Shown here in pieces: positions 2,381 through 46,708 of a stretch of DNA of 64,000 nt. The notes beneath the pieces were generated by a model. It was given only the letters and a program-made list of their open reading frames with translations. It was not told where the DNA came from and searched no databases. Origin of the DNA: Polyangiales bacterium (lineage in GTDB: Bacteria > Myxococcota_A > Polyangia > Polyangiales > Polyangiaceae); the NCBI GenBank assembly GCA_038231275.1, contig JBBRLQ010000008.1:96001-160000 (forward strand), written 5' to 3'. Every line of letters begins with the position of its first letter. The stretch's first letter is position 1. The position numbers were made by a program, and so were the translations under genes.

Positions 2381-2400
2381 TCGGACCCGACGTCGCGTCC

Positions 2401-5856: not shown

Positions 5857-6048
5857 GTGCGCACCCGGCAGGTCGATTTTAGAGCAAAGGCTCTAACACG
5901 GGCCCCTCGCCTCCGCCATCGCGGCGCGTGCGACGCGGCGGACGCGCGGAGGACCGGAGAGGCCGCGACGCGCACGTCGCACCGGCGCGCGATTCCTCGG
6001 GAAAAACGCCGATCCCGCGCGGGCATGGCCCCTGCTGTGGAGCGGCGC

Positions 6049-7287: not shown

Positions 7288-7315
7288 GCGATCGGCGCAG
7301 ACGCGGACCGAGGCG

Positions 7316-7726: not shown

Positions 7727-7880
7727 GGCGCGAACCTTACCGCGCGCACGCGCGTCCGTCTCGCGGCGAAATGCTGCTCGACGGCGCGGCGCGGACCGCA
7801 ACGTCGCCGCCGCGTCCAAGCGATCGACTCGCCCGCCGCCTCGCAAGCTCGATCGCGATGGGATCGCGTGCTCGAGGACC

Positions 7881-8693
7881 TCAGATCCTCCAGTCGCGCT
7901 TCACCTTTTCGAAGAACGACGACTCGAACACGCCGTCCACGCGGATCGAGTAGCGAAAGAACGGATCCGCTTCGACGCCGTGGTAGCCGTGATCGTTGAA
8001 CCAGTAGGCGCGCGACACCACGAAGGTCTTCTTCCTCCGCGCCTCGTCCCACAAGAAGAGTCGCTTGTTTTTCTTCGGGCACAGCGTGATGAAATGCTCC
8101 GCGCTCTCGTCCTCGGCGTCGCCGTCGTGATGGACGGTGCCGTGATGGTCGGCGTCGAGCCCGAGGATGTTGCAGCGGCCGACCACGCGAAACGGCAGGC
8201 TCTTCACGAACGCGACGAGGCGCGGGAAGTGGAGCTTGGCCTCGGCGGTGAAGTCCTTCCCCTCGCCGTTCGACTTGTCCTCCCAGCTCGTGGTCGGGAT
8301 CATTTCGTAGAAGACCTGCCACGGGAAGTAGACGCCGTAGCGGTACTTGAGGAGGAGCATCTGCTTGCGGCTGAGAGGATGCTCGCGCTCCTCGCCGAAC
8401 GCGTACTCGCGCAGGCGCGCCGGATCGAACGCGCGCGGCGCGTCGGCGAGGGACACCAACGTCCGAAGCTCGTCGTCGCTCATGCGCGCGAGGACGTGGC
8501 CGTAGTCGACGTAAGGGGCGCCTTCGAGCGACGGCGGAACGATGCCCATCGTCTTGTGGCTGCCGCCGGTGTATTCGGTCGGCACGAGCGCGAGGCCGAG
8601 CGAGATCTCGTCGTGCAGCGCCTCGAGGGCGCCGACGTCGACGTAGCGTTCGAGGTCGATGAACGGGTGCCCGGCGATGCCCCAGACCGGCAT
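7881..8693 (-). CDS. 2OG-Fe(II) oxygenase-like protein (Asp/Asn beta-hydroxylase-like cupin fold)
   Basis: HHD (HxD) ... YHGV ... RYSIR pattern matching the HxD...H triad and RxS 2OG-binding motif. Confidence 0.6.
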   Translation of the reverse strand: MPVWGIAGHPFIDLERYVDVGALEALHDEISLGLALVPTEYTGGSHKTMGIVPPSLEGAPYVDYGHVLARMSDDELRTLVSLADAPRAFDPARLREYAFGEEREHPLSRKQMLLLKYRYGVYFPWQVFYEMIPTTSWEDKSNGEGKDFTAEAKLHFPRLVAFVKSLPFRVVGRCNILGLDADHHGTVHHDGDAEDESAEHFITLCPKKNKRLFLWDEARRKKTFVVSRAYWFNDHGYHGVEADPFFRYSIRVDGVFESSFFEKVKRDWRI

Positions 8694-8730
8694 GCGGGCA
8701 GGTAGAGCACGGACCGTACCCGGCCTCGCA

Positions 8731-8745
8731 CGGCACGATTTCGGC
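8731..8745 (+). promoter_or_regulatory. Possible sigma-54 promoter upstream of the ATP-grasp operon
   Basis: CGGCACG-ATTT-CGGC gives GG-N10-GC with a good -24 box and a weak -12 box. Confidence 0.3.
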
Positions 8746-8916
8746 CGTTTTCAAGCCTCCCCAGCATCTGCCATGGCAGCGCGCCTCACCTCGCCGGCGC
8801 GGCGCGGCACGACTTGCCCCGACCCGGGCGCCGGACGCGCGCCCGCCACGACGACCTCAGGGCTTCTCTCGCGTGGCGTGTGTCTTGCTCTTTCGAAAGG
8901 GCTGCGAGGTGACGCG

Positions 8917-10185
8917 ATGGTCGACGCCGGATCGATCGCGGTCGTACGGGCTTGTCCCGGCGATCCGCTGGAAGAGAGGCCGCTCGCGCGCGAGCTGGCC
9001 GAGCGCTATTTCGTCTTCGACGCGTGCGTCGGGGGCAACCGCCGCGTGGACGTGCATCCGCTCGTCTTGTCGCCCGCGTTGCACGACGACGCCGTGCGCG
9101 CCGCGGAGGATGTCGCGCGGATGATCGGGGACGTCGCCGAGCTCGCGCACGACGACGGCGGAGAGCGCGCGCACTATGGCCTGCATCCCGACACCGCGTC
9201 CCTCGCGGCCGCGTCGTGGCGCGCCGGCGATCGCGCCTGCCTCGCGCGCGTCGATCTCTTGCTCGACGATCGCGGACGCTTCCAGGCGTGCGAGATCAAC
9301 GCGGACTGCCCGGGCGGTCACAACGAGGCGCTGGGATTGCCGCGCCTCGCGCGCGCGGCGGGCTTCGCGGACGGCACCGATCCCACACGTGTCGTCGACG
9401 CCGCGGTCGATCGGCTCGAGGAGCTCGCCGACGGCGGCGCAGTCGCCCTCGTGTACGCGACGGCGTACGCGGAGGACCTTCAGGTGTGCGCGCTCCTCGC
9501 GCGACGGCTCATGGCGCGCGGCGTCGAGGCCCTCCTGGCGCCGCCCACTGCGCTCCACGTCCGCGGCGACGAGCTGTGCTTCGGCCGCCGCCCGGTGCGC
9601 GTCCTCTACCGCTTCTTCCCGACGGAGTGGATGGCCGGTCAGCGCAACGTCGGCGACATCGCGGCGGCGGTGGCGTCGGGGCGCGTGCGAACGCTCTCGA
9701 GCTTCTCGCACATCTTCGCGCAGTCGAAGGTCGCCTTCGCCCGGGCGTGGGCGCATGGTCCGTGGCTTCATCCCGTCGATCGCGAGGTCCTCGCGGCGCG
9801 CGTTCCTTTCACCGCCGACGTGGCAACGGTTCCGGCGACGAGCCTCGTGGGCGATCGCGCGGGGTGGGTCGTCAAGCGCGCGATGGGGCGCGTCGGGGAT
9901 CAGGTCTTCGTCGGCGCGCTCTTCGGCGAGGGAGAGTGGACCGCGATCGTCGCCGACGTGATCGCCGCGCGCGCGGCCGGCGAACGCTGGCTCGCGCAGC
10001 GCTACGTGCGCCAGACGCCGCTCAACACGCCGTGGGGGCCGCGCTACGTCACCCTCGGCGCCTACGTCTTGGACGGCCGCTTCGTCGGCTATTTCGCGCG
10101 CATCACGAAGGAGACCCACGTCTCGCACGACGCGCTCTGCGTCCCCGTCTTCGTCGCACGCGGCCAGGATGGGGCGGCGCGGTGA
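8917..10185 (+). CDS. Glutathionylspermidine-synthetase-like ATP-grasp amidoligase (YgiC/YjfC-like)
   Basis: Start ATG 8917 after GAGG. RVD...CEINADCPGG, LYRFFPTEWM, QSK, WVVKRAMGRVG, LAQRYV, LGAYVL...ARI motifs. Confidence 0.85.
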   Translation: MVDAGSIAVVRACPGDPLEERPLARELAERYFVFDACVGGNRRVDVHPLVLSPALHDDAVRAAEDVARMIGDVAELAHDDGGERAHYGLHPDTASLAAASWRAGDRACLARVDLLLDDRGRFQACEINADCPGGHNEALGLPRLARAAGFADGTDPTRVVDAAVDRLEELADGGAVALVYATAYAEDLQVCALLARRLMARGVEALLAPPTALHVRGDELCFGRRPVRVLYRFFPTEWMAGQRNVGDIAAAVASGRVRTLSSFSHIFAQSKVAFARAWAHGPWLHPVDREVLAARVPFTADVATVPATSLVGDRAGWVVKRAMGRVGDQVFVGALFGEGEWTAIVADVIAARAAGERWLAQRYVRQTPLNTPWGPRYVTLGAYVLDGRFVGYFARITKETHVSHDALCVPVFVARGQDGAAR

Positions 10186-11246
10186 GGAGCGCGCTCGTCC
10201 TCGCGCCGCTCGCGCTCTACTCGGCGGCGTGCGCGCTCGAGCCGGGCTCGATCCCGCCGCAGTCTCCGGCGACGGAGTGGGAAGAGCGCCCGCAGGCGCC
10301 GCCCGAGCCGGTCGTCTTTCAGCCGTCCCCGCGCGCCGACACGATCGCGCGATGGCAGCTCCCCTCGGACAACGCGTGGGCGCGCTTCGCGAAGCTCACG
10401 CTCGTCATGGCGATGGGCGTCGCGCCTCGGACCGAAGCGCTCGTCGCGGCGCCGCGCTCGCTCGAGGTCACGAAGGCCGAAGCGGCAGCGCGCTCGCTCG
10501 CGCAGACGACAATGGCGCCCGACGCGATGTGGATCGTAGATCTGCACGGCGCGGCGTCGGTGGCGTTCGGCGCGACACTCAGCCAGCACGCGCTTGTTCC
10601 GATCGCGAACGTCCTCACGTTCAACAACTGGCCCGCCGAAAACGAGCTTGTCCCCGCCGAGGAGACGCTCGCCGCCCTGGTGCACACGAGCCCAAAGCTC
10701 CCTCCTCGCGGCGCATCGGCGGCGCGACCGGTGTTCCTCCTCGACGCGTGGCGGCTCGCCTACAAGGGCACCGAGCCCGACGACGACACCACCGACAACC
10801 GCTACTACCTCACGCCATCCGATCTCCCGGACTCCGGGCACCTCCGCGCCGCAGGGCTGCGCAGTGTGTATTACGTCGTCGCGAGCCTGCGCGAGCATCC
10901 ACAAGAGGAGGACGATCTCCACGCGATCTTCCTCGACTACCAGCAGGCCGGCATCACGCTCCACATCGTCGACCTCGACGGCCTCACGCGCCCGGTCGTC
11001 TTCCGCGAGCCAGCGCCGGAGCCGGAGGCCATCGTGCCGTACGATGAGCCGCGCCTCCTCTGGGTCGAAACACGCCCCACTGTGCTCGATGACCCCTATT
11101 TTTACGGCCGATCGCAGGGCGGCTTCGGCGGCCTCCACGGCGGCGGGCATTCGATCAACGTCGGAGGCGGGCACCCCATCACGGGCGGCGGCGGGCACCA
11201 CGGCGGCGGGAGCTTCGGCGTCGGGTGGGGCGGCGGCGGCGGGTGA
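10182..11246 (+). CDS. Putative lipoprotein with C-terminal GRSQGGFGG/His-Gly-rich tail
   Basis: GTG overlaps the ligase stop (GTGA). YSAAC lipobox-like motif, globular middle domain, ends GGFGGLHGGGHS...GGGSFGVGWGGGGG. Confidence 0.75.
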   Translation: MRSALVLAPLALYSAACALEPGSIPPQSPATEWEERPQAPPEPVVFQPSPRADTIARWQLPSDNAWARFAKLTLVMAMGVAPRTEALVAAPRSLEVTKAEAAARSLAQTTMAPDAMWIVDLHGAASVAFGATLSQHALVPIANVLTFNNWPAENELVPAEETLAALVHTSPKLPPRGASAARPVFLLDAWRLAYKGTEPDDDTTDNRYYLTPSDLPDSGHLRAAGLRSVYYVVASLREHPQEEDDLHAIFLDYQQAGITLHIVDLDGLTRPVVFREPAPEPEAIVPYDEPRLLWVETRPTVLDDPYFYGRSQGGFGGLHGGGHSINVGGGHPITGGGGHHGGGSFGVGWGGGGG

Positions 11247-11262
11247 TGTCGCGTCGGCGTCG

Positions 11263-11997
11263 TCAGAACCACGCCTGCCACACGCCGTCCTCGTGGAGGA
11301 CGTGGACGGTGGCCGAGACGCGGTCGACGTCGCCGGGGAAGCTCAGGATCTGATGGAGACGGTACGCGTCGAACGCGACGAGCTCGCCCGGCGTGTAAAG
11401 CACCGTCGTCGACGCCGCGTGCGGGCCAGGGTGCTCCGGAAAATCCTCACCGTCGTAGAAGCGATCCCACACGCGTAGGCCACCGCCGTGCGGCGGCATC
11501 TGGAGCATGAGGACGCACGACAGCGACGGAAGTCGCGCCTCGAGCTGCGCGTCGCTCATTCCCTCCGTGTCGAAGTGCACCTCGCCCCCGCGACGCGCCA
11601 CCTGCGACCCGGCCGGGAAAATATGCACCCCTGGGCCGCACCATCCGGGGCGCCGAGTCACGGCGGCGCCGAGGTGGTCGCTCACGACGCGGAGCACGGT
11701 TTCCTGAAGGCCGGGGACCGCTTCCTCGACGATCGCGTCGGATTCGGCGGCGCCGTCGAAGTACTCGTCCTCGCGATCCTCCTCGAAGTGCGTGTACCAG
11801 GCGCGGCCCAGCGTGTACTGAACCCCGGCAAAATTGGCCGTCCAGCGCGCCCGCGCCGCGTAGACGCCTCGCGTGATTCGCGCGCACGTCGCGGCGTCCA
11901 TGACCCCCGCGAATCGCGCTGCTCGCTCCGCGGCGCACCGGCTCGTGAGCGACGGCGGGAAGAAAGCGGGGGCGCCGAACGTGGACGCGAGGTGCAT
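11263..11997 (-). CDS. 2OG-Fe(II) oxygenase
   Basis: VHFD ... GGGLRVW ... GELVAFD ... LHQI ... RVS. The start may instead be the internal ATG (MDAATC). Confidence 0.75.
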   Translation of the reverse strand: MHLASTFGAPAFFPPSLTSRCAAERAARFAGVMDAATCARITRGVYAARARWTANFAGVQYTLGRAWYTHFEEDREDEYFDGAAESDAIVEEAVPGLQETVLRVVSDHLGAAVTRRPGWCGPGVHIFPAGSQVARRGGEVHFDTEGMSDAQLEARLPSLSCVLMLQMPPHGGGLRVWDRFYDGEDFPEHPGPHAASTTVLYTPGELVAFDAYRLHQILSFPGDVDRVSATVHVLHEDGVWQAWF

Positions 11998-34492: not shown

Positions 34493-35965
<1,473 letters not shown>

Positions 35966-36000
35966 CGCGCGACGCGACGAGGGTAGGCCCTGGTCGCACC

Positions 36001-36015
36001 TGACGAAAATTGTCA
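36001..36015. promoter_or_regulatory. Candidate upstream activator site for PilR
   Basis: TGAC-GAAAATT-GTCA dyad about 190 bp upstream of the sigma-54 promoter; related TGACGTAACTTTGT at 36130-36143. Confidence 0.4.
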
Positions 36016-36190
36016 CTCGCCGCCATCGCCATGGACGATTCACGGCGAAACCCGCGCCCACACGAGCGCCCCGCGGCCCTACCGAAGCGCACGCCGGACC
36101 CGGTCATTTCTAGGCTTTCCCCCCCGATATGACGTAACTTTGTGGCTCGCTGCGCGCTCGTCGCCCGCGGCCTGACCGAGAGGTTCCCCA

Positions 36191-36206
36191 TGGCACGACC
36201 GGTGCT
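36191..36206 (+). promoter_or_regulatory. Sigma-54 (-24/-12) promoter of the pilin genes
   Basis: TGGCACG-ACCG-GTGCT, GG-N10-GC, downstream of pilR and upstream of the pilins. Confidence 0.75.
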
Positions 36207-36219
36207 TAGTACTGCCCCT

Positions 36220-36879
36220 GTGAGAAGCCTTGGCCCCTGCCCGAATCGCGTCGCGCTTGCGCGGCGACGAAATCAAGCGGGCTTCACTCTCGTGGAGCTC
36301 GGGGCGGTCGTTACTATCGTGGGCATCCTCGCGGTGCTCGCCGTGGTCGGCTACCGGAAGATGATCACGGCGTCGCACAACGCCGAAGCCACGCACATGG
36401 TCAACGCGATCCGTACTGCGCAAGAGAACTACAAGGCCGAGACCGGCACGTACGCGGCGATCACGGGCACCGCAACGACGGCGCTCTCCATCACGAATGG
36501 CGGCGGCACCGACTGCTCGCAGCTCGCCGCCATGTATCCACTGGCGAGCCCGACGGCGGGCGTGGTCACCAAGACGGCGTGGGGCTTGGCGTGCACCGGC
36601 TCGCAGTGCCCGACCGCGGGCATCACCTGGGACTCGATCCCCATCCACGTCGATGGCCCGGTCATCTACGGGTACACGACCGTCGCCAACCTCGCCGGCA
36701 CCACGCCGGGCGCGCTCAGCATGCTTCGCAACGGCACCTACAGCCTCACGTTCCCCACGGCGACGACCGACTGGTTCGCGGTCGCCGCGTGCGGAGACCC
36801 TGACGGGGACAAGGTCTTCAGCGCCTACGTCTCCAGCTCGTTCTCCAACGAAATCTTCGCGTCCAACGAAGGCGAATGA
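36220..36879 (+). CDS. Type IV pilin-like protein 1 (Thr-rich)
   Basis: Basic leader RRRNQAG|FTLVEL, hydrophobic helix, Cys pairs, GDPDGD. Start uncertain; GTG 36220 was chosen because it lies downstream of the promoter. Confidence 0.85.
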   Translation: MRSLGPCPNRVALARRRNQAGFTLVELGAVVTIVGILAVLAVVGYRKMITASHNAEATHMVNAIRTAQENYKAETGTYAAITGTATTALSITNGGGTDCSQLAAMYPLASPTAGVVTKTAWGLACTGSQCPTAGITWDSIPIHVDGPVIYGYTTVANLAGTTPGALSMLRNGTYSLTFPTATTDWFAVAACGDPDGDKVFSAYVSSSFSNEIFASNEGE

Positions 36880-36978
36880 CCCAAAAGCTTGTGCGCTCGA
36901 AAAGGGGCCACGTTCCGACACCACAACACGAAGCTCCAGCGGCACACGTGGCCCACCGAGCGAAAGAAAGGACAGCAG

Positions 36979-37527
36979 ATGCGTAAGGTACTCTCTCTCA
37001 AGAAACGCGGATTCACGCTCGTCGAGCTCATGATCGTCGTCGCCATCGTCGGCGTGCTCGCCGTGCTCGCGATTTACGGCGTCCGTAAGTACATCGCGAA
37101 CTCGAAGACCACCGAGGCACGTAACTCGCTCGGTGAAATCAAGAACGACTCGGCGTCCGCGTTCGAGCGCGAGACCGGCGGCACGACCGTGCTCGCGGCC
37201 GGCAGCTCGACGACCCTCCTCCGCGCGCTTTGTCCGGGCGGCGCAAAGGTTCCGTCGGCCGGCGTCCCCGCGTCGTCGAAATACCAGTCCGCCAAGGGCG
37301 ACTGGGCCGACAACGCAGGCTGGCAGTGCCTGAAGTTCTCCCTCGAGCAGCCGCAGTACTTCCAGTACGAGTTCCTCAGCGGCGGCGGTACCACGAGCTA
37401 CATCGCCAGCGCGTACGGTGACCTCAACGGCGACACGATTCTCTCGACGTTCGCCGTCTCGGGCAACGTCCAGGCCGGCGCGCTCAACACGTCCCCGACC
37501 ATCCAGGAGACCAACCCGGAGGAGTAA
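36979..37527 (+). CDS. pilA: Type IVa pilin, probable major pilin
   Basis: AAAGGA RBS, MRKVLSLKKRG|FTLVELMIVVAIVGVLAVLAI, optimised-looking codons, followed by a terminator. Confidence 0.88.
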   Translation: MRKVLSLKKRGFTLVELMIVVAIVGVLAVLAIYGVRKYIANSKTTEARNSLGEIKNDSASAFERETGGTTVLAAGSSTTLLRALCPGGAKVPSAGVPASSKYQSAKGDWADNAGWQCLKFSLEQPQYFQYEFLSGGGTTSYIASAYGDLNGDTILSTFAVSGNVQAGALNTSPTIQETNPEE

Positions 37528-37548
37528 AACCCCCGGCTCGGTTCTTCG

Positions 37549-37593
37549 GCCTTGCCCCGTCGCACGAAGATGGGGCAAGGCTTTTTCCTTTTT
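37549..37593 (+). terminator. Rho-independent terminator after pilA
   Basis: GCCTTGCCCCGTC-loop-GATGGGGCAAGGC followed by TTTTTCCTTTTT. Confidence 0.88.
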
Positions 37594-37631
37594 GTGGACC
37601 TGGTGTGCGAGAGAGAGTGGCGGCCCCTTCG

Positions 37632-39389
37632 ATGAACACGCGCGACAAGGTGGAGCGATGGGCACCGCTCGTCGCCGGTCTTCTCTTCGTCATCCCGGTC
37701 CTGGCCGCGCGCTACCCGCCGATGACCGACCTCGCGCTGCACGAGGCCGTCGTCGCGGTGCTCCGCCACTTCGACGATCCGAAGTACTTCGCGCCTGGGC
37801 TCTACCGCTACAACCTCGGACACCCCAACCAGCTCTTTTATTTCATCGCGTGGCCGCTCTCCTACCTCGTTGGCACGAGCTGGGCGATGAAGCTCGTCGT
37901 CGCGGGAACGCAGATGGGGCTCTTCCTCGCCGGCGCGCGCTTGGCGCGGTACTTCGGCACGCCGCGCTGGACGGCGCTCCTCGTGGGCCTCTTGGGCCTC
38001 GGGTGGTTCTTTTATTGGGGTCTCATCGCGAACCTCCTGGGGCTTGCGATCTTCCTGACCGTGCTGCCGACCCTGGACCGCTTCGTCACGAGCCCGACTC
38101 CTCGGCGCGCCGCCGCGGCCTTCGGGATCTTGCTGCTGCTGTACGGGGCGCACGAGAGCCTCATGGTCTGCGCCGCGTTCATGATCGCGCTCTTCGCGCT
38201 CGGGCACCCCCTGCCCACGCGCGCGTTCGTGCTCCGCCTGGCGCCGCCGGTCGCGATGTTCGGCGTGACACTCCTCCAGATCTGGTGGGGGCAGCGACTC
38301 CGTGCACCCTACAACCAGGCGGTCGGCACCACGTTCGATCCGATCGGGTACAAAGTCTCGACCATCTCCGGCGTGCTCTTCGCGGGGTACGAGCCGTACG
38401 TCCGCAACCTCATGCTGCTCCTCGTACTGATGGCGATGGTGCTCCTCACCCTCGCGCGCTGGCGCGAGGAGCCCGCGGTACGGGGGCGGCCGAGGCGCGA
38501 GCTGTTCGTGCGGTTCCGGTTCGAGATCTTCGCGGCGAGCCTGTTCGCGCTCTACTTGACGATGCCGATGACCGTGAACGGCGCGACGCTCTTCTACCAG
38601 CGCTTCTTTCCGCCGTCGTACGCGATCCTCGCGGTTGCGCTCGCCCCGCGCGGGGCACCTTCGCCGGCGTGGCGAGTGCCGCGGCTCATTTGCCTGGTGG
38701 CGCCGCTCGCGTCGTTGGCGATCGCGTGGCCGAGCTTCGTCGAGTCGCACGTGATGGCGCGCGACATCGAGGCGCTCGCCGAGCTGACCGAGTACAACAG
38801 CGCGACCGCGCTCGTCGACGTCGGCACGACGCCGACCTTGCGCTTGTTCTCGGCGTCGACGTTCGAGGGGCACGTGCTCGCGATGCGCGGAGGGCGAACG
38901 CTGTTCGACTTCACGCGCTCGCCCATCGCGCCGGCGTTCATGAACCCCGCGTACGCGTGGGACGAGCCGTGGGGACGTCTCCAGTACAAGCCGATCTTCA
39001 TCAGGCCGGAGCACGACTGCGACTACTTCCGCTACGTGTACTTCCACTCCGCCGGCGCGGATCTGCACAGGCTGGCGATTGCCGCGATGGAGCCGGACGC
39101 GCGACTGGTCGGGACGCGCGGAGAGTGGTCGCTGTTCGAGTCAAAGCACCTGAAGCACGGCGTGCTCTCGCCCGATGGGCACCTCCCCTACCCGCGGCCG
39201 CATACGCTGCGGAAGAAGATGAAGGACGTTCTCCGCAAAGTGAACGGCGAGGCGATCCCCGCGGAGACTCCGCAGGAGCCGCCGCCTGGGTGGGTAGGGC
39301 AGCCGCTGGCGCTTCCTGATCCGGGGGACGATCCGGGTCCTCCCGAGGCCCTGCCCGACGGCGGAGTGACGGGCGGAGACGCCGGCTAG
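37632..39389 (+). CDS. Polytopic membrane protein, GT-C-fold glycosyltransferase-like
   Basis: About 10 or more TM segments, first-loop PPMTDLALH acidic motif, soluble C-terminal domain, immediately after pilA. Confidence 0.6.
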   Translation: MNTRDKVERWAPLVAGLLFVIPVLAARYPPMTDLALHEAVVAVLRHFDDPKYFAPGLYRYNLGHPNQLFYFIAWPLSYLVGTSWAMKLVVAGTQMGLFLAGARLARYFGTPRWTALLVGLLGLGWFFYWGLIANLLGLAIFLTVLPTLDRFVTSPTPRRAAAAFGILLLLYGAHESLMVCAAFMIALFALGHPLPTRAFVLRLAPPVAMFGVTLLQIWWGQRLRAPYNQAVGTTFDPIGYKVSTISGVLFAGYEPYVRNLMLLLVLMAMVLLTLARWREEPAVRGRPRRELFVRFRFEIFAASLFALYLTMPMTVNGATLFYQRFFPPSYAILAVALAPRGAPSPAWRVPRLICLVAPLASLAIAWPSFVESHVMARDIEALAELTEYNSATALVDVGTTPTLRLFSASTFEGHVLAMRGGRTLFDFTRSPIAPAFMNPAYAWDEPWGRLQYKPIFIRPEHDCDYFRYVYFHSAGADLHRLAIAAMEPDARLVGTRGEWSLFESKHLKHGVLSPDGHLPYPRPHTLRKKMKDVLRKVNGEAIPAETPQEPPPGWVGQPLALPDPGDDPGPPEALPDGGVTGGDAG

Positions 39390-39415
39390 TCGAGCCGTAG
39401 CCGAGGACCTAAGAA

Positions 39416-40300
39416 CTACCGAGCCTGCGCGAGCCGGCGGCGTGCTTGCGGAGAGCGCGGGCGCATGTCGACGACGAAGCCGTGCAGATGGGCAAGGCGC
39501 GGCATGAGGCGGGTCGTGCTCCCGTCGAAGCCGGGATGCCGGAGGAGCGCGGGGAGAAGCTCCTCGCGCCATCCCGGACCGCCGAAGTAGGGCCATTTTC
39601 GGCCGTCATAGACGAACGACTCCGCGAGGCGCGCGCCGTCTGCGTCGGCGGTGAATTGCACGTCGGACTTTTTCTGGCGAAACAGCTGCCGCGCGCGATC
39701 GGCGAGCGACTGGCCGGCGGAGACTTGGAGATCCGGCCACCACGGGCAGTCGAAGTACACGTGATCGGCGACGCGCCCGACCTCCCAGAGCGCCGGCGCG
39801 AGCACGTCGGTGCGCCACGTCTCGGGCGGCTCCATCCCGCGGATGCCACGCAGGCGCGCCGCCGTGCGGATCGCGGCGACCCCCCAGTTGTCGGGATTGC
39901 ACACCGTCACGACCAGGAGCTTCTTCGCGCGCGCGGCGAGCTCCTTCAAGTAGCTGCGCCAGTCGGGCGCGAGCGGGAGCGCGTGGTACGCGAGGACGAG
40001 ATCGGCGGCGGGAAGCCCCTCGAGCGACGTGGTCACGCGAACATCGACCTTCGCGCCAAGCGACGTGTACACGCCGCGCGCGAGGTCGGCCTTCGCTTCT
40101 TCGTCGACCGCGGAGGTGACGTGAACACCCTGCAGCGCGAGCCCCGCGCCGTGCACGCCGGCGATCCCGGCCATGCCGTCCAGCGGCCCCTCGAGCATCG
40201 ACCCGATCTCGTACGCCTTCGCCCAAGCATCGAGGCGCTGGTAGAAGCAGTATCGCTCGTACGCGCTGCCGAGGCCGCGATCGGCGGTGACGAGGCTCAT
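39416..40300 (-). CDS. Class I SAM-dependent methyltransferase-like protein
   Basis: MLEGPLDG motif-I-like segment, ADLVLAYHAL motif, ATGA overlap with the radical SAM gene. Confidence 0.5.
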   Translation of the reverse strand: MSLVTADRGLGSAYERYCFYQRLDAWAKAYEIGSMLEGPLDGMAGIAGVHGAGLALQGVHVTSAVDEEAKADLARGVYTSLGAKVDVRVTTSLEGLPAADLVLAYHALPLAPDWRSYLKELAARAKKLLVVTVCNPDNWGVAAIRTAARLRGIRGMEPPETWRTDVLAPALWEVGRVADHVYFDCPWWPDLQVSAGQSLADRARQLFRQKKSDVQFTADADGARLAESFVYDGRKWPYFGGPGWREELLPALLRHPGFDGSTTRLMPRLAHLHGFVVDMRPRSPQARRRLAQAR

Positions 40301-41415
40301 TTTTCGGCCGTTCCCGAAGTGCCTGCGTGGATCATGTTAGCGCCGACCCGCGCCAGCGTGACCGGATCGAGGAGCATGTTCGTGTAGCTCGCGTTCGCGA
40401 GCGGGCACGCGCACTCCTTGTTCTTGACGCTCTTGCGAAACGTCTCCGCGGTCTCTCCGAACCACACCGGCCGGAAATCGTAACCGTGGTCGCGGAGGTT
40501 CCCCATCGACTCCGCGCGCACGCAGCAGCCCCACAGATGCCCGTCCGGAGCGAGGTGCGCGCTCGCCCACCCCGCGTAGCAATCGATCACCTGACGCTTC
40601 TCCTCCAGCACCCGCGACGCGAGATCGTAGTACTCGAGGCGAAGCGACTCGACGAGGCGGGCGACCGGCTTGAGCGAGCGCTTGCTGGCGACGACGTTCT
40701 TAAGGTGCGCGACGGCGCGGCGGTAGTCCTGCGGATCCGGGGTGATGTCCTTGTGAAGGGTCTTCAGCTCGACGCGGTTCTCGGCGACCTCGGTGATGTA
40801 CGAGTCCGGATCGAAGACCCGCCGGATCTCGCGCTGGATCTCGGGGATGCGGTGGACGTTGAGCTTCGAGATGACCGTGTGAACGCCCATCACGATGTGG
40901 TCGTAGGTCTTTTGGAGATCGCGGATGAGACCCTTCACCTCGATCAGCTTCTCCCAGTTGTGATCGGCGCCGCGGATCTCGTCGTGCTTCTCGCCGATCT
41001 CGTCGACCGAGAGGTTCAGGACCAGGCTCGATCCGCGGGAAAAATGGGCAATTCTGGGGAGGAGCTGGTGGATGCGCTCGGTGATGACGCCGTTCATCGG
41101 GATGTTGATGATCGTCGGCTCGATCTGCGTGCGAATCAGGCGCACGATCTCGTCGAGATCTTTTCGCACGAACTGATCGCCGCCGGAGATGGTGACCCAG
41201 ATGGGCACCTTCTCGAGCGTCGGGAAGATGCGGCCGTACTCGTCGACCGAGAGATCATCGACCTTCTTCTGCCAGATGTCGCAGGTCGCGCAGCGGCTCG
41301 GGCAGCTGTAGGTGACGGACACCGTCAGGTTGATGGGCAGCTGGCGCGTGCGCCCGGTCGCGTGCTCGACGCGGTAGCCGGCGAGGCGGGCGAGGACCGG
41401 CAGCTTGCGCGACAT
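40297..41415 (-). CDS. Radical SAM protein with SPASM/Twitch domain
   Basis: CPSRCATC (CxxxCxxC), ISGGD, C-terminal CYAG...PDG..WGCC...GNL...CAC. Start ATG 41415 overlaps the GT stop (TAATG). Confidence 0.92.
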   Translation of the reverse strand: MSRKLPVLARLAGYRVEHATGRTRQLPINLTVSVTYSCPSRCATCDIWQKKVDDLSVDEYGRIFPTLEKVPIWVTISGGDQFVRKDLDEIVRLIRTQIEPTIINIPMNGVITERIHQLLPRIAHFSRGSSLVLNLSVDEIGEKHDEIRGADHNWEKLIEVKGLIRDLQKTYDHIVMGVHTVISKLNVHRIPEIQREIRRVFDPDSYITEVAENRVELKTLHKDITPDPQDYRRAVAHLKNVVASKRSLKPVARLVESLRLEYYDLASRVLEEKRQVIDCYAGWASAHLAPDGHLWGCCVRAESMGNLRDHGYDFRPVWFGETAETFRKSVKNKECACPLANASYTNMLLDPVTLARVGANMIHAGTSGTAEK

Positions 41416-42395
41416 TACTTTCGCGCCTCGTCGACCTGCGGAACCTTCGCGGCCGGCGGGATGCTCGGCGATGGGACGTGCGCGCCGGCGCCGGGCAGGA
41501 CCGAGAGGAGGCGCTTGGTGCTCCGGAGCTGCTTCCACGTGCGGTGCTTGCCGCCGAGGATGCGCGCGTCCACGAAGCCGGCGACGCGCGCGACGACCTC
41601 CGTAGCAATCGCGGCGCCGAGCGCGCGCTTTCCGAAGGCGTCCTGCTCCTGGAACATGTCGTACGCGACGCGCAGGAGCAGCGAGCGATCGAGCGTCGCC
41701 ACTTGGTAGCCGAACGCGAAATCGAGCCAATAATGGCCGCGCGCGATGCGGCGGCGCTGCTCGAAGTACTCGTCGAGGCGCTCCGGGCCGTGGTTCTGCA
41801 CGATCGCGTCGCCGGCGTACGCGAGCTCGTAGCCCTGGGAGCGCACGATGTCCTCGACCGACGCCTCGTCGACGACCGACAGCTCGCTCACGCGCTCGAT
41901 GAGCTTCGAGCGGAACGAGACGAGCTCGCCCATCTTGGGGTGAATCATCGCGACGCGGTGGTGCATCTCCCAGAGGAGCTGCACCATCTTGCCGACGGTG
42001 TCCTTTGCGGGGTTGTCGGGGATGGGGCGGGCGCCGACCATCCCGACGTCGGGGTTCGCCTCGTAGCAACGAACGAGCTTCTCCACCACGTCGGGCGCGA
42101 CGCGCAGATCGGCGCTGCAGATGACCGCGATGTCGGCGCGCGGGTTGCGGACGCGGAGGTACTCGTTGATCGCGGCGACCTTGCCGCCGCGGCGCTCTTG
42201 AACGTGGACGTGCACGCCGGGGCGGCCGCGGGCGACCTTGCGCGCGAGATCGGCGGTGTCGTCGGTGCATCCGCTCGCGACGACGACGATCTCCACGATC
42301 CGCGCGTGCTGCGTCTCCTGGTCGAGGAGCGACCGCAGAACGGTCCGGATGTTGGCCGACTCGTTGTGCGCCGGGACCAGGATGGAGACGAACAT
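41415..42395 (-). CDS. Glycosyltransferase family 2
   Basis: VSILVPAHNE, SGCTDDT, GKVAAIN, SAD, EQRRRIARG (QxxRW-like). Confidence 0.92.
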   Translation of the reverse strand: MFVSILVPAHNESANIRTVLRSLLDQETQHARIVEIVVVASGCTDDTADLARKVARGRPGVHVHVQERRGGKVAAINEYLRVRNPRADIAVICSADLRVAPDVVEKLVRCYEANPDVGMVGARPIPDNPAKDTVGKMVQLLWEMHHRVAMIHPKMGELVSFRSKLIERVSELSVVDEASVEDIVRSQGYELAYAGDAIVQNHGPERLDEYFEQRRRIARGHYWLDFAFGYQVATLDRSLLLRVAYDMFQEQDAFGKRALGAAIATEVVARVAGFVDARILGGKHRTWKQLRSTKRLLSVLPGAGAHVPSPSIPPAAKVPQVDEARK

Positions 42396-42424
42396 CTATC
42401 GAGATTTCCAACGAAGAAGATACC

Positions 42425-43436
42425 ATGAAGCATCACGTCCCGACGACTCGCCCTCGTGACCGGCGCGACCGGTTTCATCGGCTCCCACCTCGTGCGAAAG
42501 CTGCTCGGGGAGGGCTGGCCGGTGCGCATGCTCGTGCGCAGCCCCGACGGCGAAGGGGCGAAAGAGCTGGTGGCGGCGGGGGCCGAGGCGTTCCGTGGGG
42601 ACTTGGGTGACCCGTCGTCGCTCGGGAAGGTCGGCGCGGGGGTCACGCACGTGTTCCATGCGGCGGCTCAGCTGAACATGAACCTCCAATCGGCGACCCT
42701 CGCCGACTTCGCCACGAACGCGAGCGGCACCGAGGCGCTCGTCGACGCGCTGGCGGGGGCGCCGCTCGAGAAGTTCGTCCACGTCTCGAGCCTGGCCGCG
42801 ATCGGCATTCGGCCGGTCGGGATGATCGACGAGACGTTCCCGTGCGATCCGGATCTCGCGTACGGCAAGAGCAAGCTCCTCGCCGACGAGCACCTCTTGC
42901 GGCTCTACCGCGAGCGCGGCTTGCCCGTCGTCATCCTGCGCCCGCCGACTGTGTACGGTCCAGGCGAGCGATACAATTTCTTGTCGATGTGCGCGGCGAT
43001 CGCGCAGAAGAAATTCGTCTTCATCGGCGACGGCTCCAACCGCGTCGATTTCTTGTGGATCGGAAGCCTGACCGCGGCGCTCGTGGGGGCCGCGGAGCGG
43101 GGACGCGCGGGAGAGGTGTACCTCGTCGCCGATGATCCGGCGCGATCGTTCCGGGACACCGTGGACGCGGTGTGGCGCATCGTGCACGGGACGCCTGCGC
43201 CACGGTGGCATCTCCCGGTGTCGCTCGCGTACGCGCTCGCGTACCCGATGGGCGCGCTCGGCGCGAGGCTCGGACGCGCGGTGCCCCTCTACCCCACGCG
43301 CGTGCGCACGATGGCCGGGGACATGTGCTTCGACCTCGGGAAGATCAAGCGCGAGATCGGCTACGCGCCCGACGGCGCCTTCGAAGGCAACCTGCGGACG
43401 ACGATCGACGTGTATCGCCAGCGCGCCCTACTGTGA
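42425..43436 (+). CDS. NAD-dependent epimerase/dehydratase (extended SDR) with an apparent frameshift at the start
   Basis: LALVTGATGFIG, FHAAA, HVSS, YGKSK, RPPTVYGPG. ATG 42425 is one base out of frame with the body; in-frame GTG 42456 would truncate strand beta-1. Confidence 0.85.
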
Positions 43437-44600
43437 CGGCGCAGCCTTTTTTCCACGCGAGCGGCCGAGGAAGAGGAGCGCTCCGGTGACGCTCGCCGAG
43501 TACCAATAGAGCCGGTAGAGGAGGCTCACGCTGAGGGCCGCGGGCGCCGAGACGCCTGCGCGCGCGAGGAAGACCACGAACGCGGCGTCGCTGGTCCCCC
43601 ACCCTCCCGGGAGCGCCGGAATCGCCCCCGCGATGAACGCGATGGCAGCGCCGGCGTAGACCCAACGCTCCACCGTCGGCGTCACGTCGAGCGCGCTCAC
43701 CAGCCCGCGGATCACGCCGAGCTGCACCGCGGAGACGACGAGGCTCCATGCGAGCGCCCGCAGGAGCGCGGCGGGGGCGCGGGGATCGTTCAGGTACTCG
43801 AGCACCGGCTTCGCGGTGCGCGCGAGGAGGCGGTGCTCCAGAATTTTTGCGCCGCGCATGGGCTTCGAGCGCAGCACCGCGAGGCCGAGCGCGACGGCGA
43901 CCGGGATCGCCCCGAGGATCAGCACCGCAGGGCCGACCGCCGAAGGCTCGAAGACGGCTGCGAGCGCGGCCGCCATCCCCGCCATCGTCGAGAGGCCGAT
44001 CGCGCGATCGAGCAGAACGCTCGCCGCCACCGTCGCCGTCGGCACCCCGAGGCCTGTGAGCGACGCGATGCGCACCGCGTCCCCGGCGACTCCGCCCGGC
44101 AAGAGTACGCCTGCCGCCTGCGCCTCCAACGTCACCCGCCACGCATGGCGCACGGTGACCGGCGCGTTCGCGAGGCGAAGCAGCGCATGCCATCGCGCCG
44201 CCCACGCCAGCGTGCCCAGGCCGTAGACCGCCGCGAGGAGCGCGAGCAGGCCAAGCCGCGCGCCCGCCAGCGTCGACGCGAGGCCCGGCTCGCAGTCGAG
44301 CCGCGCGCACGCCTCGGGCGAGAGGCGAACGGGCCCGCGCGGTGCTTGCAGAGTGCACCCATTGGCGTCGCGCGAGACGGGAAATCGCGGCCCTTTCGAC
44401 GCGGCGGCCGGCGCAGTCCCCTCCGGCGCCAGGCCCGTGTCGAAGCACCGATCGCGAATGGGCACGACGTAGGCGACGAAACCGAGCGCCAGGATCGCGA
44501 GGCCGAACGTGACGAGCCGGCGGCGCAGGCCCGCGGTCGCCGGCGTGGCAGCAGCCGCAGCGGCGGTTTTTGGGTCCTTGCCTTCTTCGTTCGTTCGCAT
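43428..44600 (-). CDS. Lysylphosphatidylglycerol-synthase TM-region (UPF0104/YbhN) flippase-like membrane protein
   Basis: ARWHALL, LLPGGVAGDAVR, SVLLDR, PGGWGTSD, LLYRL motifs; extra Cys-containing periplasmic loop. Confidence 0.85.
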   Translation of the reverse strand: MRTNEEGKDPKTAAAAAATPATAGLRRRLVTFGLAILALGFVAYVVPIRDRCFDTGLAPEGTAPAAASKGPRFPVSRDANGCTLQAPRGPVRLSPEACARLDCEPGLASTLAGARLGLLALLAAVYGLGTLAWAARWHALLRLANAPVTVRHAWRVTLEAQAAGVLLPGGVAGDAVRIASLTGLGVPTATVAASVLLDRAIGLSTMAGMAAALAAVFEPSAVGPAVLILGAIPVAVALGLAVLRSKPMRGAKILEHRLLARTAKPVLEYLNDPRAPAALLRALAWSLVVSAVQLGVIRGLVSALDVTPTVERWVYAGAAIAFIAGAIPALPGGWGTSDAAFVVFLARAGVSAPAALSVSLLYRLYWYSASVTGALLFLGRSRGKKAAPSQ

Positions 44601-44700
44601 GTCCGGCCACCAAACGCGCGCCAGAGAGCACCTTAGCCGCCCGGCTCCGAAGTGAGCCATCTCTTCGCACTTTCGCCGTCCCTTGCGGTATCTTGCCCGC

Positions 44701-45291
44701 GTGATCCGCGCGCCACGCGCCAGCAGACGCCGACGGTGGGGGCAGCGCCGCGCGCGCGGAGTGGCCCTCACCGAGGCCATGAATTTCCTGGCGCTCGCCG
44801 CGATCTTGAGCGCCGGTGGCATGTACGGGCTCGCGCGGTACGTGCGGCACGCCAAGACGGCCGAGGCGATCGGCTCGGTGACGGCGATCGCTGAAGCCGC
44901 CGCGCGCTACTACGACCAGTCGGACAGCAACCAGCCGGCGGGGACCACGCCCGAGGCCGCGCACGCGATGCGCCACTTTCCGCCGGGCTCCAAGGCCGCC
45001 GTCCCCGGGGACGCCGACGCGATCAAGGGCAAGAGGTACCAGTCGACGCTGGCCGACTGGACCGGATCGCCGTGGGCGGAGCTCCGCTTCTCGATCCCGC
45101 AGCCGCAGTACTACTCGTATGCGTTCGAGTCGCAGGGGTCGGGCGCACAGGCCACCGCCGCCGCCGTCGCCCACGCCGACCTCGACGGCAACGGGAAGAT
45201 CTCCACCTACCGCTTGAGCATCGCGCCCGATCCGGTCACATTCAAGGCGAAGGTCGCGGTCGAAATCGAGAAGATCGACGCAGAGGAGTGA
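44701..45291 (+). CDS. Type IV pilin-like protein 3 (non-canonical N-terminus)
   Basis: RRARG|VALTE; YGLARYVRHAKTAEA resembles PilA YGVRKYIANSKTTEA; W.ELRFSIPQPQYYSY; ADLDGNG. Confidence 0.8.
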   Translation: MIRAPRASRRRRWGQRRARGVALTEAMNFLALAAILSAGGMYGLARYVRHAKTAEAIGSVTAIAEAAARYYDQSDSNQPAGTTPEAAHAMRHFPPGSKAAVPGDADAIKGKRYQSTLADWTGSPWAELRFSIPQPQYYSYAFESQGSGAQATAAAVAHADLDGNGKISTYRLSIAPDPVTFKAKVAVEIEKIDAEE

Positions 45292-45296
45292 CGGAG

Positions 45297-45827
45297 ATGG
45301 GCTCGGGCGTCGCGCGCAGGCAACGAGGGTCGCGCGGCCTCACCGCGGTGGAGGCGGCGATCGTCTTCGCGATCGGCGGATCCCTCCTCGCCGTGGCGGT
45401 CCCGGCGTTCGTCCGCGAGTTGCACGCGTCGCGCTTCGCCGAGCCCGTGGAAGGACTCCAGCGAATGGGGCAAGAGGCGCTCACTTACGCGGCGTCCAAG
45501 CCCGCCCGCGATGCGTTCCCGAAGAGCGCGCCGCTCACTCCATCCTCCCCTCCGCGCGGCACGCGCGAGCTCGATCCCTCTGGGGCGTGGGACCACCCGA
45601 CCTGGGTCGCCCTCGGTTTCCGCGCAGCACCGGAGGGAGTCCCGCACGCCTTCGCGTTCGCGTTCGATTCGACGCCGGGTCCGGCGCGCTCGACCTTCAT
45701 CGCGCACGCGCACGGCGACCTCGACGGGGACGGCGTGCGCAGCACCTTCGAGCTGCGGGGCCACGCGCAGGACGGCGAGCCGGCAGCGCTCGAGCCCGGG
45801 CTTTACGTGGAGAACGAGGTCGAATGA
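45297..45827 (+). CDS. Type IV pilin-like protein 4
   Basis: RGSRG|LTAVE, AVAVPAF, W.ALGF, AHGDLDGDG..STF. Alternative start GTG 45288. Confidence 0.8.
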   Translation: MGSGVARRQRGSRGLTAVEAAIVFAIGGSLLAVAVPAFVRELHASRFAEPVEGLQRMGQEALTYAASKPARDAFPKSAPLTPSSPPRGTRELDPSGAWDHPTWVALGFRAAPEGVPHAFAFAFDSTPGPARSTFIAHAHGDLDGDGVRSTFELRGHAQDGEPAALEPGLYVENEVE

Positions 45828-46708
45828 AGTCGAGCGGCGTCCTCGTCGGCCTCCTCCTCGCCGTGAGCGTCCTCGGCGTCGCGCGCGTGCAGCCGCGCCT
45901 CGCCGCGCGCGTCCACGAGGTAAAGGTCGACCACGATGTCTACCTCTTGCCGCCGCCCTCGGAGCTCCGCGCGATGTCACTCGGCTACCGCGCCGCCGCC
46001 GCGGACGCCGCGTGGGCGAAGCTCATCGTCGAGTACGGAACGCACTGGAGCGAGCATCGACCGTTCGACGACGCCGCCAAGTACATGGAGGCGATCCTCG
46101 CGCTCGATCCCACCTACCCGCTCGTCTACAAATACGCCGAGACGCTGATCGTCTATCACCCGCCGGTCGGCACGCTCCAAGACTGGTACGTCGCGCGCGG
46201 CTTCCTGGAGCGCGGCACCCGCGAGCGACCTTACGACAGCGAGGTGTGGCTTCATTACGGGCAGTTCCTGGCGTTCGCCGCCGGCTCCTTCGTGAAAGAC
46301 CAGGCCGAGCTCGATCGGTACCGGGAGGAGGGCGCGCGCGCGATCGTGCACGCAGTGGAGCTCGGTGCCGACGCGGACAGGACGATCTCGGCGGCGACGC
46401 TCCTCAGCCGCTATGGGCAGCGCGACGCCGCGATCCGCGACCTGCGCCGCGCGTATGCCCTCACCGACGACGACCGCGACCGCGGTCTGATCGCGCAAAA
46501 GCTCGCCGTCCTTGGCGCGACGGCCGACAAGGACGAGATCGAGAGCAACATGCGCGTCATCGAATCCCGTTGGCGGGACGAGTTCGCCTTCCTCTCGCGC
46601 GACGCGTACATGCTCATCGGTCCCATCCGCGACCCGAACAAATGCGTTGGGCGCGCTTCCGTAGGCTGCCCTCGCGACTGGAACGACGTCATCCAGCGCG
46701 CGCCCTGA
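45824..46708 (+). CDS. TPR-like protein resembling myxobacterial PilG
   Basis: ATGA overlap, N-terminal TM, LGYR..AAD..W...YG, LDP.Y..Y.Y, LERG motifs, pilin context. Confidence 0.65.
   Translation: MKSSGVLVGLLLAVSVLGVARVQPRLAARVHEVKVDHDVYLLPPPSELRAMSLGYRAAAADAAWAKLIVEYGTHWSEHRPFDDAAKYMEAILALDPTYPLVYKYAETLIVYHPPVGTLQDWYVARGFLERGTRERPYDSEVWLHYGQFLAFAAGSFVKDQAELDRYREEGARAIVHAVELGADADRTISAATLLSRYGQRDAAIRDLRRAYALTDDDRDRGLIAQKLAVLGATADKDEIESNMRVIESRWRDEFAFLSRDAYMLIGPIRDPNKCVGRASVGCPRDWNDVIQRAP

Follow-up and report, generated by a model that had tools for sequence, protein, structure and literature searches.

The stretch of DNA analysed here, referred to as the window, comprises 64,000 nucleotides of a Polyangiales bacterium, a myxobacterium from soil (NCBI GenBank assembly GCA_038231275.1, contig JBBRLQ010000008.1, positions 96,001 to 160,000 of the forward strand), and positions given without further designation refer to it. 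It contains a cluster of type IV pilin genes and, within this cluster, an island of six genes (37632–44600) flanked by pilins 1 and 2 on one side and by the pilin-like genes 3 and 4 on the other. The island encodes a membrane protein with a predicted GT-C glycosyltransferase fold, a GT2 glycosyltransferase, a radical S-adenosylmethionine (SAM) enzyme, a protein with a predicted methyltransferase fold, a short-chain dehydrogenase/reductase (SDR) and a UPF0104 membrane protein; its possible role in pilin glycosylation is the subject of this analysis. As the G+C content of the window is about 70%, raw lists of open reading frames (ORFs) were full of false frames, and coding frames were picked by third-position GC content and then translated. 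Together with Pfam, these frames reproduced the coordinates and the gene list of an initial annotation made from the sequence alone (Table 1).

Table 1. Features of the pilin cluster and the enclosed island; a slash marks the cleavage site.
Feature	Position	Strand	Basis or remark
Sigma-54-dependent response regulator (PilR-like)	34493..35965	+	Pfam Response_reg, Sigma54_activat, HTH_8; directly upstream of pilins
Type IV pilin 1 (ORF as listed)	36142..36879	+	PF07963 2.4e-5; NF041775 PilA_Myxo, N-terminal part only
Type IV pilin 2	36979..37527	+	PF07963 2e-8
Terminator-like hairpin and T-run, 3' of pilin 2	37548..37582	+	14 pairs, 9 G-C, then TTTTCCTTTT
GT-C fold membrane glycosyltransferase, family 'A1', 585 aa	37632..39389	+	Structure model
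Class I SAM-methyltransferase-fold protein ('X294' family), 294 aa, last operon gene	39416..40300	-	Structure model
Radical SAM enzyme, SPASM/Twitch-type C-terminal domain	40297..41415	-	PF04055 4.8e-9, PF13186 1.4e-5
Soluble GT2 glycosyltransferase, first operon gene	41415..42395	-	PF00535 9e-20
Extended SDR (NAD-dependent epimerase/dehydratase family, HpnA-like)	42456..43436	+	PF01370 2e-36
UPF0104 / LPG_synthase_TM flippase-like membrane protein	43428..44600	-	PF03706 3.6e-31; TIGR00374 flippase-like domain
Pilin-like protein 3	44683..45291	+	RG/VALTE
Pilin-like protein 4	45297..45827	+	RG/LTAVE; translation RG/LTAVEAAIVFAIGG

Three of the six genes form a translationally coupled operon: the GT2 stop and the radical SAM start have one base in common (TAATG), and between the radical SAM gene and the 294-aa gene the stop and start codons overlap as ATGA. 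A coupled operon of GT2, radical SAM/SPASM and methyltransferase-like genes, as the initial annotation had read it, was thereby recovered, the methyltransferase fold now being assigned from a structure model. No hydrophobic segments were predicted in the GT2, the radical SAM enzyme, the methyltransferase-fold protein or the SDR; the GT-C and UPF0104 proteins are polytopic. The GT-C gene starts 105 bases past the stop codon of pilin 2. A search of the window for sigma-54 promoters (TGGCAC-N5-TTGC, at most two mismatches) gave 31 matches against 46.6 expected and was not above chance; the sigma-54-like site TGGCACGACCGGTGC at 36191–36205, which has one mismatch and lies before pilin 1, is weakly noteworthy only. 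Sigma-70 promoters were not detected within 35900–46000.

The 585-aa membrane protein showed no match in Pfam or NCBIfam. None of its 81 homologues was named, and the few organism labels among them were Polyangiaceae or Labilithrix. An AlphaFold2 model built from 39 of these homologues reached a predicted local distance difference test score (pLDDT) of 91.5 and a predicted template modelling score of 0.89. All Foldseek matches with E values up to 0.05 (ranks 1–33 of those listed) were GT-C enzymes, among them AftD, STT3, ALG12, ArnT, DPY19, AftA, AglB, PglB and Emb. A VIA scan of 48161 chains led to the same assignment: the top 20 chains were all GT-C with Z scores of 6.7–13.7, and the next fold reached a Z of 5.4. 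ArnT was the best match (Z 13.7 over 414 residues, root-mean-square deviation 5.0), followed by AglB (13.1) and Pmt4 (13.0), and the protein-modifying GT-C enzymes PMT, STT3/AglB/PglB and DPY19 were found at Z 11–13. According to the model, the membrane protein which had initially been called GT-C-like has a GT-C fold.

The C-terminal part of the model forms an alpha/beta periplasmic domain of mixed strands and helices, for which no TPR match was obtained with Pfam. It weakly resembles the C-terminal domains of AglB and PglB, with Z scores of 4.0–4.3, values that the tool itself counts as noise. Catalytic acidic residues of GT-C enzymes are found in the region after the first transmembrane helix. 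In the island protein, M31, D33, H37 and E38 are invariant across the 39 homologues and stand right behind this helix (residues 3–25), with D33 and E38 in the first loop, whose helix covers residues 34–45. The fold, taken together with the GT2 and UPF0104 genes nearby, suggests that the donor would be a sugar linked to a lipid phosphate.

The GT2 assignment is clear from the PF00535 match. The nearest solved relatives are a GT2 enzyme (6yv7, 2e-10), dolichol-phosphate-mannose synthase (DPMS, 5mlz, 8e-6) and ArnC (3e-3), so that the polyprenyl-phosphate GT2s appear only at the latter two values. The radical SAM enzyme carries the cluster motif CPSRCATC (CxxxCxxC) with invariant C38, C42 and C45, and its C-terminal domain matches the SPASM family of Pfam with 25.7 bits at a cut-off of 21.5. 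Full SPASM enzymes have seven cysteines and two auxiliary clusters. A CxxCxxxxxCxxxC run was not found in the island enzyme and the full set of seven is absent; as five C-terminal cysteines are invariant (279, 297, 298, 335 and 337), a single auxiliary cluster is more likely from the sequence. This cysteine set, sized for one auxiliary cluster, is a feature shared with the Twitch radical SAM dehydrogenase BtrN, in which the C-x17-C spacing is presumably the same and whose substrate is a sugar-like aminocyclitol. No match of the island enzyme to any solved radical SAM enzyme extended beyond the core domain.

Among the 120 best matches listed for the radical SAM enzyme, identities were 74–90%, and those that were named belonged to Polyangiaceae. 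A phmmer search against solved structures gave no match, and a profile search gave matches to the core domain only (SkfB, a viperin-like enzyme and MoaA), which offered no functional lead. The best NCBIfam match was the PTO1314 family with 45.6 bits at a cut-off of 306, a tie of which to the calditol synthase Cds would be speculative, and weak matches to the peptide maturases PqqE, ScmE, HxsC, AlbA and SkfB all remained well under their cut-offs. HpnJ and Cds were not among the NCBIfam matches listed (25/26), the presence of their models in the library not having been checked. The ESM Atlas returned generic 'radical SAM' and 'methyltransferase' clusters only.

The third protein of the operon (294 aa, X294 family) gave no Pfam match at an E value of 0.01, although homologues are numerous (323 in one search, 179 clusters at 50% identity in another). 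The Methyltransf_11 model was applied to ten stand-alone relatives and scored above its cut-off in five, below it in three and without a match in one. The AlphaFold2 model (pLDDT 90.5) retrieved SAM methyltransferases in all 40 listed Foldseek rows, and the best match of the family profile was D-glucose O-methyltransferase 6uv6 (4e-9). Invariant residues are G42, G45 and G48 of the cofactor loop together with D184, P186 and W188, and P189 and D190 come close to invariance; the consensus DCPWWPD covers the region D184–D190. By its model the protein has the class I methyltransferase fold, with methylation as its predicted activity.

Fused forms of these proteins occur in nature and tie parts of the cassette together. 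A GT-C homologue carries a C-terminal methyltransferase (P0043), and an 837-aa ORF covers GT2 and GT-C in genome G244 (L057:1286-3799). Further fusions join an SDR to an X294 domain (P0302, P0349) and an X294 domain to a second methyltransferase (P0229, P0296).

For the SDR, the NCBIfam matches were HpnA-like, OleD-like and dehydratase-like. The best of them, HpnA, reached 141 bits at a cut-off of 368, and as every one was below its cut-off the sugar cannot be named from this protein. Its orthologue is limited to close kin, and elsewhere an SDR of about 30% identity takes its place. The first canonical start, GTG at 42456, would remove the first beta strand; RRLAL is encoded in frame just 5' of this GTG after a stop at 42426 (window 42426–42458), and genome G002 of the same genus has a TTG at the matching position (R-L-A-L-V). 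In the window, the start may be non-canonical or the first strand may have been lost. The UPF0104 protein matches LPG_synthase_TM with 109 bits at a cut-off of 33.4 and is the only flippase candidate of the island, among whose genes neither Pfam nor NCBIfam revealed a small flippase of the GtrA, ArnE/F or MATE type.

Both pilins 1 and 2 score above the PF07963 threshold and have a class III signal with glycine at -1 and glutamate at +5, together with a hydrophobic helix at the N-terminus; the pilin-like proteins 3 and 4 have degenerate signals in which these two residues are retained. The cleavage site of pilin 1 is QAG/FTLVE, and its true start probably lies downstream of the listed ORF start, for example at GTG 36221. 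Pilin 2, cleaved at KRG/FTLVELMIVVAIVG (beginning KRG/FTLVE), is the first choice for the major pilin and the likely acceptor. Its orthologues are 46–77% identical, and 20 of 21 aligned orthologue rows end in EE or DE, mostly as ...NPEE. Pilin-like protein 3 was without a match in the Pfam scan and is 33% identical to pilin 2; its orthologues border the island in relatives. The PilR-like gene stays adjacent to pilin 1 in relatives. Short acidic tails were seen in all four proteins, namely NEGE (36868–36879), NPEE (37516–37527), DAEE (45280–45291) and NEVE (45816–45827). The invariant KYQS motif and S156 of the pilin 2 orthologues were considered as acceptor sites, and KYQS was dropped as a cassette-specific site since it is also present in genomes without a detected radical SAM enzyme.

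Comparison with 41 related genomes revealed an orthologue of the radical SAM enzyme (E < 1e-90) in seven of them. In G002, from the same genus, the gene order is identical to that of the window, and in three genomes of other genera (G015, G247 and G282) the cassettes are rearranged and still lie between PilR with pilins 1/2 and pilins 3/4 with a TPR gene. A larger island in G001, again of the same genus, holds additional SDRs, methyltransferases, two desaturases and a TMEM260-like protein, the extra genes being placed between GT-C and the methyltransferase-fold gene. When a single genome was scanned for each species, tblastn confirmed 552 radical SAM relatives, and the best 80 loci were examined, some of which are the same places as genomes of the 41-genome comparison. 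All loci were retrieved via the radical SAM enzyme or the GT-C and none via a pilin query. At the 34 loci with a radical SAM enzyme at least 70% identical, GT2 was present in 32, the methyltransferase in 33, UPF0104 in 29, GT-C in 26 and a pilin in 28. Where at least 9 kb were available on both sides, the pilin was found in 18 of 18 loci, pilins on both sides in 14 and GT-C in 16. The link between cassette and pilins that the initial annotation had drawn therefore stands for the Polyangiaceae-like loci (18/18) and fails for most of the distant ones, where a single locus in 46 shows it.

Linkage to pilins was also seen for the GT-C itself. The retrieved loci contain 55 distinct ORFs of this family; of the 28 that score best, 20 are no more than 110 bases away from a pilin gene, whereas only two of the 27 weaker ones lie within 1 kb. 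A quick maximum-likelihood tree placed the pilin-linked copies in one clade (Shimodaira–Hasegawa-like approximate likelihood ratio support 100) in which 29 of 34 rows are linked to pilins, compared with none of 21 outside it; the sister clade is linked to the cassette and lacks pilins. The slot between the pilins was found in different states: in G014 the pilin cluster is contiguous and the island absent; in G191 two pilin genes are followed by GT-C and a TMEM260-like gene without the radical SAM cassette; and in G012 pilin 3 is followed by GT-C and other genes, including one for a sulfatase-family membrane protein, and then by pilins 2 and 1. This inter-pilin slot seems to hold differing candidate modification genes across genera. 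The sulfatase family of the G012 protein includes the Neisseria pilin phosphoform transferase PptA. At this locus (L148, G012:C412), the region 2103–11725 between pilins 3 and 2 encodes GT-C, a TPR protein and the sulfatase-family protein, which has 632 aa, and contains three further ORFs that gave no Pfam match. In G282 (L051, contig C11), pilin 2 and GT-C are separated by an inserted gene at 5921–9505, whose 1194-aa product has a methyltransferase domain resembling spermine synthase. On an unrelated myxobacterial contig (L106), whose radical SAM enzyme is 58% identical, pilMNOPQ is followed by a divergent pilA adjoining GT2 and the radical SAM gene.

A co-fold in which the GT-C and mature pilin 2 were each supplied with an alignment was graded as 'weak support', with a median interaction score (ipSAE) of 0.34 over runs of 0.34, 0.01 and 0.40. 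The best of three controls reached 0.01, the runs shared at least 57% of contacts, and the partner pLDDT was at least 67. Of 157 solved complexes, 116 attain the mark for such support, as do 2 of 215 mismatches; at values of 0.60 or under, only 18 of the 157 solved complexes attain it, and so do both mismatches.

Starting from the observed protein families, the operon, the inter-pilin position and the pilin-linked GT-C clade, we propose with a probability of about 50% that the island encodes a lipid-linked glycosylation pathway of the three-component type across the inner membrane, with the pilins as likely acceptors. The pathway itself is inferred, from its carrier lipid and the sequence of its steps to the flipping, the nature of the sugar and the pilin as acceptor. 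In the cytoplasm, the soluble GT2 would load a sugar onto a membrane lipid carrier, most likely polyprenyl phosphate. Tailoring of this sugar would fall to the methyltransferase-fold protein and to the radical SAM enzyme of Twitch/SPASM type that is coupled to the GT2, and the SDR would supply the sugar or modify it further. For the radical SAM step, a ring contraction as proposed for HpnJ and calditol synthase and an oxidation of the BtrN type are equally conceivable. The UPF0104 protein would carry the lipid-linked product to the periplasmic face, where the GT-C would transfer the sugar to membrane-anchored type IV pilins before their assembly. It is the gene order and one weakly supported co-fold that point to the pilin as acceptor. 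The three-component logic invoked in the initial annotation agrees with the list of parts, as GT2, UPF0104 and GT-C fit the three roles and SDR, radical SAM enzyme and methyltransferase fit the tailoring; it does not extend to the flippase slot, which is not occupied by GtrA.

Compared by description only, TfpW of P. aeruginosa is the nearest known system. The available text on TfpW (10.1101/2020.04.19.049825) describes a GT-C enzyme which is encoded after the group IV pilA and adds D-arabinofuranose, made on a lipid carrier, to the pilin. Both systems have the gene of a GT-C type enzyme directly downstream of a pilin gene, and in both, for the island by proposal, a sugar on a lipid carrier is made in the cytoplasm, crosses over and is put on the pilin in the periplasm. 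The island resembles TfpW and is not a member of it, because the donor genes differ (DprE1/DprE2 and a GtrA-like protein in TfpW; GT2, radical SAM enzyme, methyltransferase fold, SDR and UPF0104 in the island), because the motif of loop 1 differs (DDX versus M-x-D-xxx-H-E), and because the C-terminus is a mixed alpha/beta domain instead of the TPR predicted for TfpW.

Three-component systems, as outlined in the accessible part of Kelly et al. (PMC11127046), consist of a polyprenyl-phosphate sugar synthase, a flippase and a GT-C, with an auxiliary SDR or epimerase that diversifies the sugar. Candidates for the same three roles as in GtrABC, ArnC/ArnEF/ArnT and the GT136 pentofuranose systems are encoded in the island together with an SDR, and the resemblance to the Arn system extends to ArnT as the best structural match of the GT-C and to ArnC and DPMS among the solved relatives of the GT2. 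The island differs in its flippase candidate, which is UPF0104 and not GtrA, ArnEF or MATE, in a GT2 without transmembrane segment, in a putative synthase to which the radical SAM and methyltransferase-fold proteins are coupled, and in its likely acceptor, a protein instead of O antigen or lipid A. In gpgSDF of P. aeruginosa and hexSDF of C. difficile, too, one operon combines a glycosyltransferase with a tailoring enzyme and a predicted flippase of the UPF0104 family (PMC12713373). As far as that source is available, these operons differ from the island in having glycerolipid head groups as end products, a GT4, a deacetylase and no GT-C, and according to the same source GpgF is a flippase by prediction only.

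A number of observations weigh against the proposed pilin glycosylation. The 46 loci in which the radical SAM enzyme is less than 70% identical contain GT2 in 33, the methyltransferase in 19 and an SDR in 28 cases, yet a pilin in only one (L106) and this GT-C family in two. They come from other Myxococcota, Thermoanaerobaculia and other Acidobacteriota, Anaerolineae, Dehalococcoidia, Calditrichota, Eisenbacteria, Solirubrobacterales and two archaeal bins, the phyla including Chloroflexota and Actinomycetota. Even within the myxobacteria, three genomes of other families (G048, G269 and G244) hold the cassette and GT-C with no pilin in the stretch examined, and the source genome (G000) encodes two more GT-C paralogues (C17:75889-77472 and C18:17313-18293) without nearby pilins or cassette. 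As the Polyangiaceae-like loci are mutually related, their counts describe one lineage and not independent events. UPF0104 proteins studied so far link to glycerolipids and not to polyprenyl carriers, namely MprF, GpgF and HexF in the available texts (PMC12713373; 10.1101/2022.03.11.483950). The weak co-fold of GT-C and pilin includes one run, out of three, with a score of 0.01. None of the pilin residues could be singled out as acceptor, and the KYQS motif occurs also in G014, G009 and G011, genomes in which the radical SAM enzyme was not found. An operon of the kind seen in other phyla could have a membrane glycolipid as its end product.

In the distant loci, GT2 usually lies immediately upstream of the radical SAM gene, and at an archaeal locus the two stand by themselves. 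Three distant loci read, by Pfam, metallophosphoesterase, GT2, radical SAM, DUF362 and methyltransferase, continuing with LPG_synthase_TM, SDR, GT2, GT4, GT2 and phosphodiesterase. A longer conserved operon around GT2 and radical SAM was noted in L117, L124 and L118 (uncultured bacteria; Dehalococcoidia), with DUF362 (Npun_F2552-family), LPG_synthase_TM, a dehydratase-like SDR, GT2/GT4 and an alkaline-phosphatase-superfamily protein. The notion of a pilin-specific cassette did not survive this comparison, since GT2 and radical SAM, often with methyltransferase, UPF0104 and SDR, span many phyla without pilins. The module alone probably makes a lipid-linked product. Its lipid-sugar core is much older than the link to pilins and was probably recruited in Polyangiaceae through the addition of a dedicated GT-C, and the pilin-adjacent GT-C wiring of the module is found only in the Polyangiaceae-like lineage.

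A more far-reaching version of the proposal, which we regard as doubtful, is that an ancient multi-phylum pathway of GT2 and radical SAM enzyme, joined by a methyltransferase-fold partner of their own and by UPF0104, makes a rearranged lipid-linked sugar which the Polyangiaceae GT-C moves to pilins; such a sugar might, just as speculatively, be ring-contracted or carbocyclic, or C-branched and methylated. A precedent for the coupled pair is given by HpnI/HpnK/HpnJ, which form bacteriohopanetetrol cyclitol ether, and by the calditol synthase Cds: in the available text of PMC13459092, a glycosyltransferase makes a lipid-linked hexose, for which ring contraction by the radical SAM enzyme is proposed. 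The products of these systems, unlike that proposed here, remain in the membrane. If this version were true, it would represent protein glycosylation with a sugar type so far unseen on proteins, and diversifying selection acting at the surface of the pilus would account for the variable inter-pilin slot.

Alternatively, the cassette might make a modified glycolipid or decorate a non-protein envelope glycan (such as lipopolysaccharide, exopolysaccharide or peptidoglycan), with the GT-C acting on that target. The inter-pilin site would then be a tolerated insertion or a spot of co-regulation without a clue to the substrate, a possibility that we consider real but on the unlikely side. It stays alive because UPF0104 proteins have so far been tied to glycerolipids, with the homologues GpgF and HexF in glycolipid operons (PMC12713373, as available). 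It also agrees with the core module being free of pilins in 45 of 46 distant loci, with the GT2/GT4 and phosphodiesterase-family genes added to the operons of other phyla, with the pilin-free cassettes and GT-C genes of G048, G269 and G244, and with the varying content of the inter-pilin slot, as would be expected for an insertion hot spot. Known three-component GT-C systems, moreover, act mostly on glycans or lipid A in the accessible part of PMC11127046. A glycan or lipid acceptor fits less well with the tree, in which all pilin-linked GT-C copies fall in one clade, and with the pilin gene that abuts 20 of the 28 best GT-C homologues. Nor does it explain why the GT-C keeps its place at the pilins in genomes that lack the rest of the cassette or carry other genes instead, why GT2 and radical SAM stand independently next to pilA in L106, or why the co-fold of GT-C and pilin scored above its controls.

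The GT-C could also serve a general periplasmic O-glycosylation of proteins, the pilins being merely its most abundant clients or its genomic neighbours. We consider this improbable, even though PMT, STT3/AglB/PglB and DPY19 are among the structural matches at Z 11–13 and TMEM260-like O-mannosyltransferase genes occur in the same islands of G191 and G001. Close adjacency to a pilin is typical of dedicated enzymes like TfpW, as far as that source (10.1101/2020.04.19.049825) is available, and other clients were not identified in this analysis. The weak resemblance of the C-terminal domain to those of AglB and PglB (Z 4.0–4.3) would agree with a general role, but a Z of about 4 falls within the tool's own stated noise. 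Most SPASM enzymes act on peptides or proteins, and the SPASM match together with the peptide-maturase matches in NCBIfam, weak and far under their cut-offs, would fit a radical SAM enzyme that, for example, cross-links pilin-like proteins next to unrelated glycosylation genes. This appears very improbable given the translational coupling to GT2 and given that a GT2 gene accompanies the enzyme, usually just upstream, in 32 of the 34 close loci and in 33 of the 46 distant ones, including pilin-free phyla and archaea. The five conserved C-terminal cysteines, instead of the seven of a full SPASM enzyme, also argue against a peptide substrate, and a small precursor-peptide gene was not noticed in the operon, for which no dedicated search was made.

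Pilin-linked GT-C glycosylation with a lipid-linked donor is already known, and what the island would add to it is a donor module that is old, widespread and uncharacterised. In open-access text we found no description of the island's gene combination or of an operon of DUF362, radical SAM and glycosyltransferase genes, and a limited search of such text gave no report of pilin glycosylation in myxobacteria. Social motility of myxobacteria depends on type IV pili. In Pseudomonas, glycosylation of the pilin alters phage susceptibility according to the available text of 10.1101/150227. For the island, the radical-SAM-modified, possibly methylated sugar and the part in phage evasion or kin recognition suggested in the initial annotation are speculative. 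With one pilin and six genes, the locus represents a defined candidate system and a handle on a widespread operon (552 relatives in the one-genome-per-species scan) and its radical SAM chemistry. Once solved, the pathway could extend the range of lipid-linked sugars and the functions assigned to UPF0104 proteins.

Downstream of the island, a TPR protein with a signal-like N-terminus is encoded at 45824–46708, its ATG at 45824 overlapping the stop of pilin-like gene 4 (ATGA). The TPR gene trails the pilin cluster in every relative examined (L014, L050, L051, L148, L149 and L150), with or without the island, and the protein is probably part of the pilin locus and not of the cassette. Elsewhere in the source genome (G000), a paralogue of pilin 2 with 65% identity is encoded on another contig (C31:64245-64772), and PilM of the pilus machinery on yet another (C60:8171-9181).

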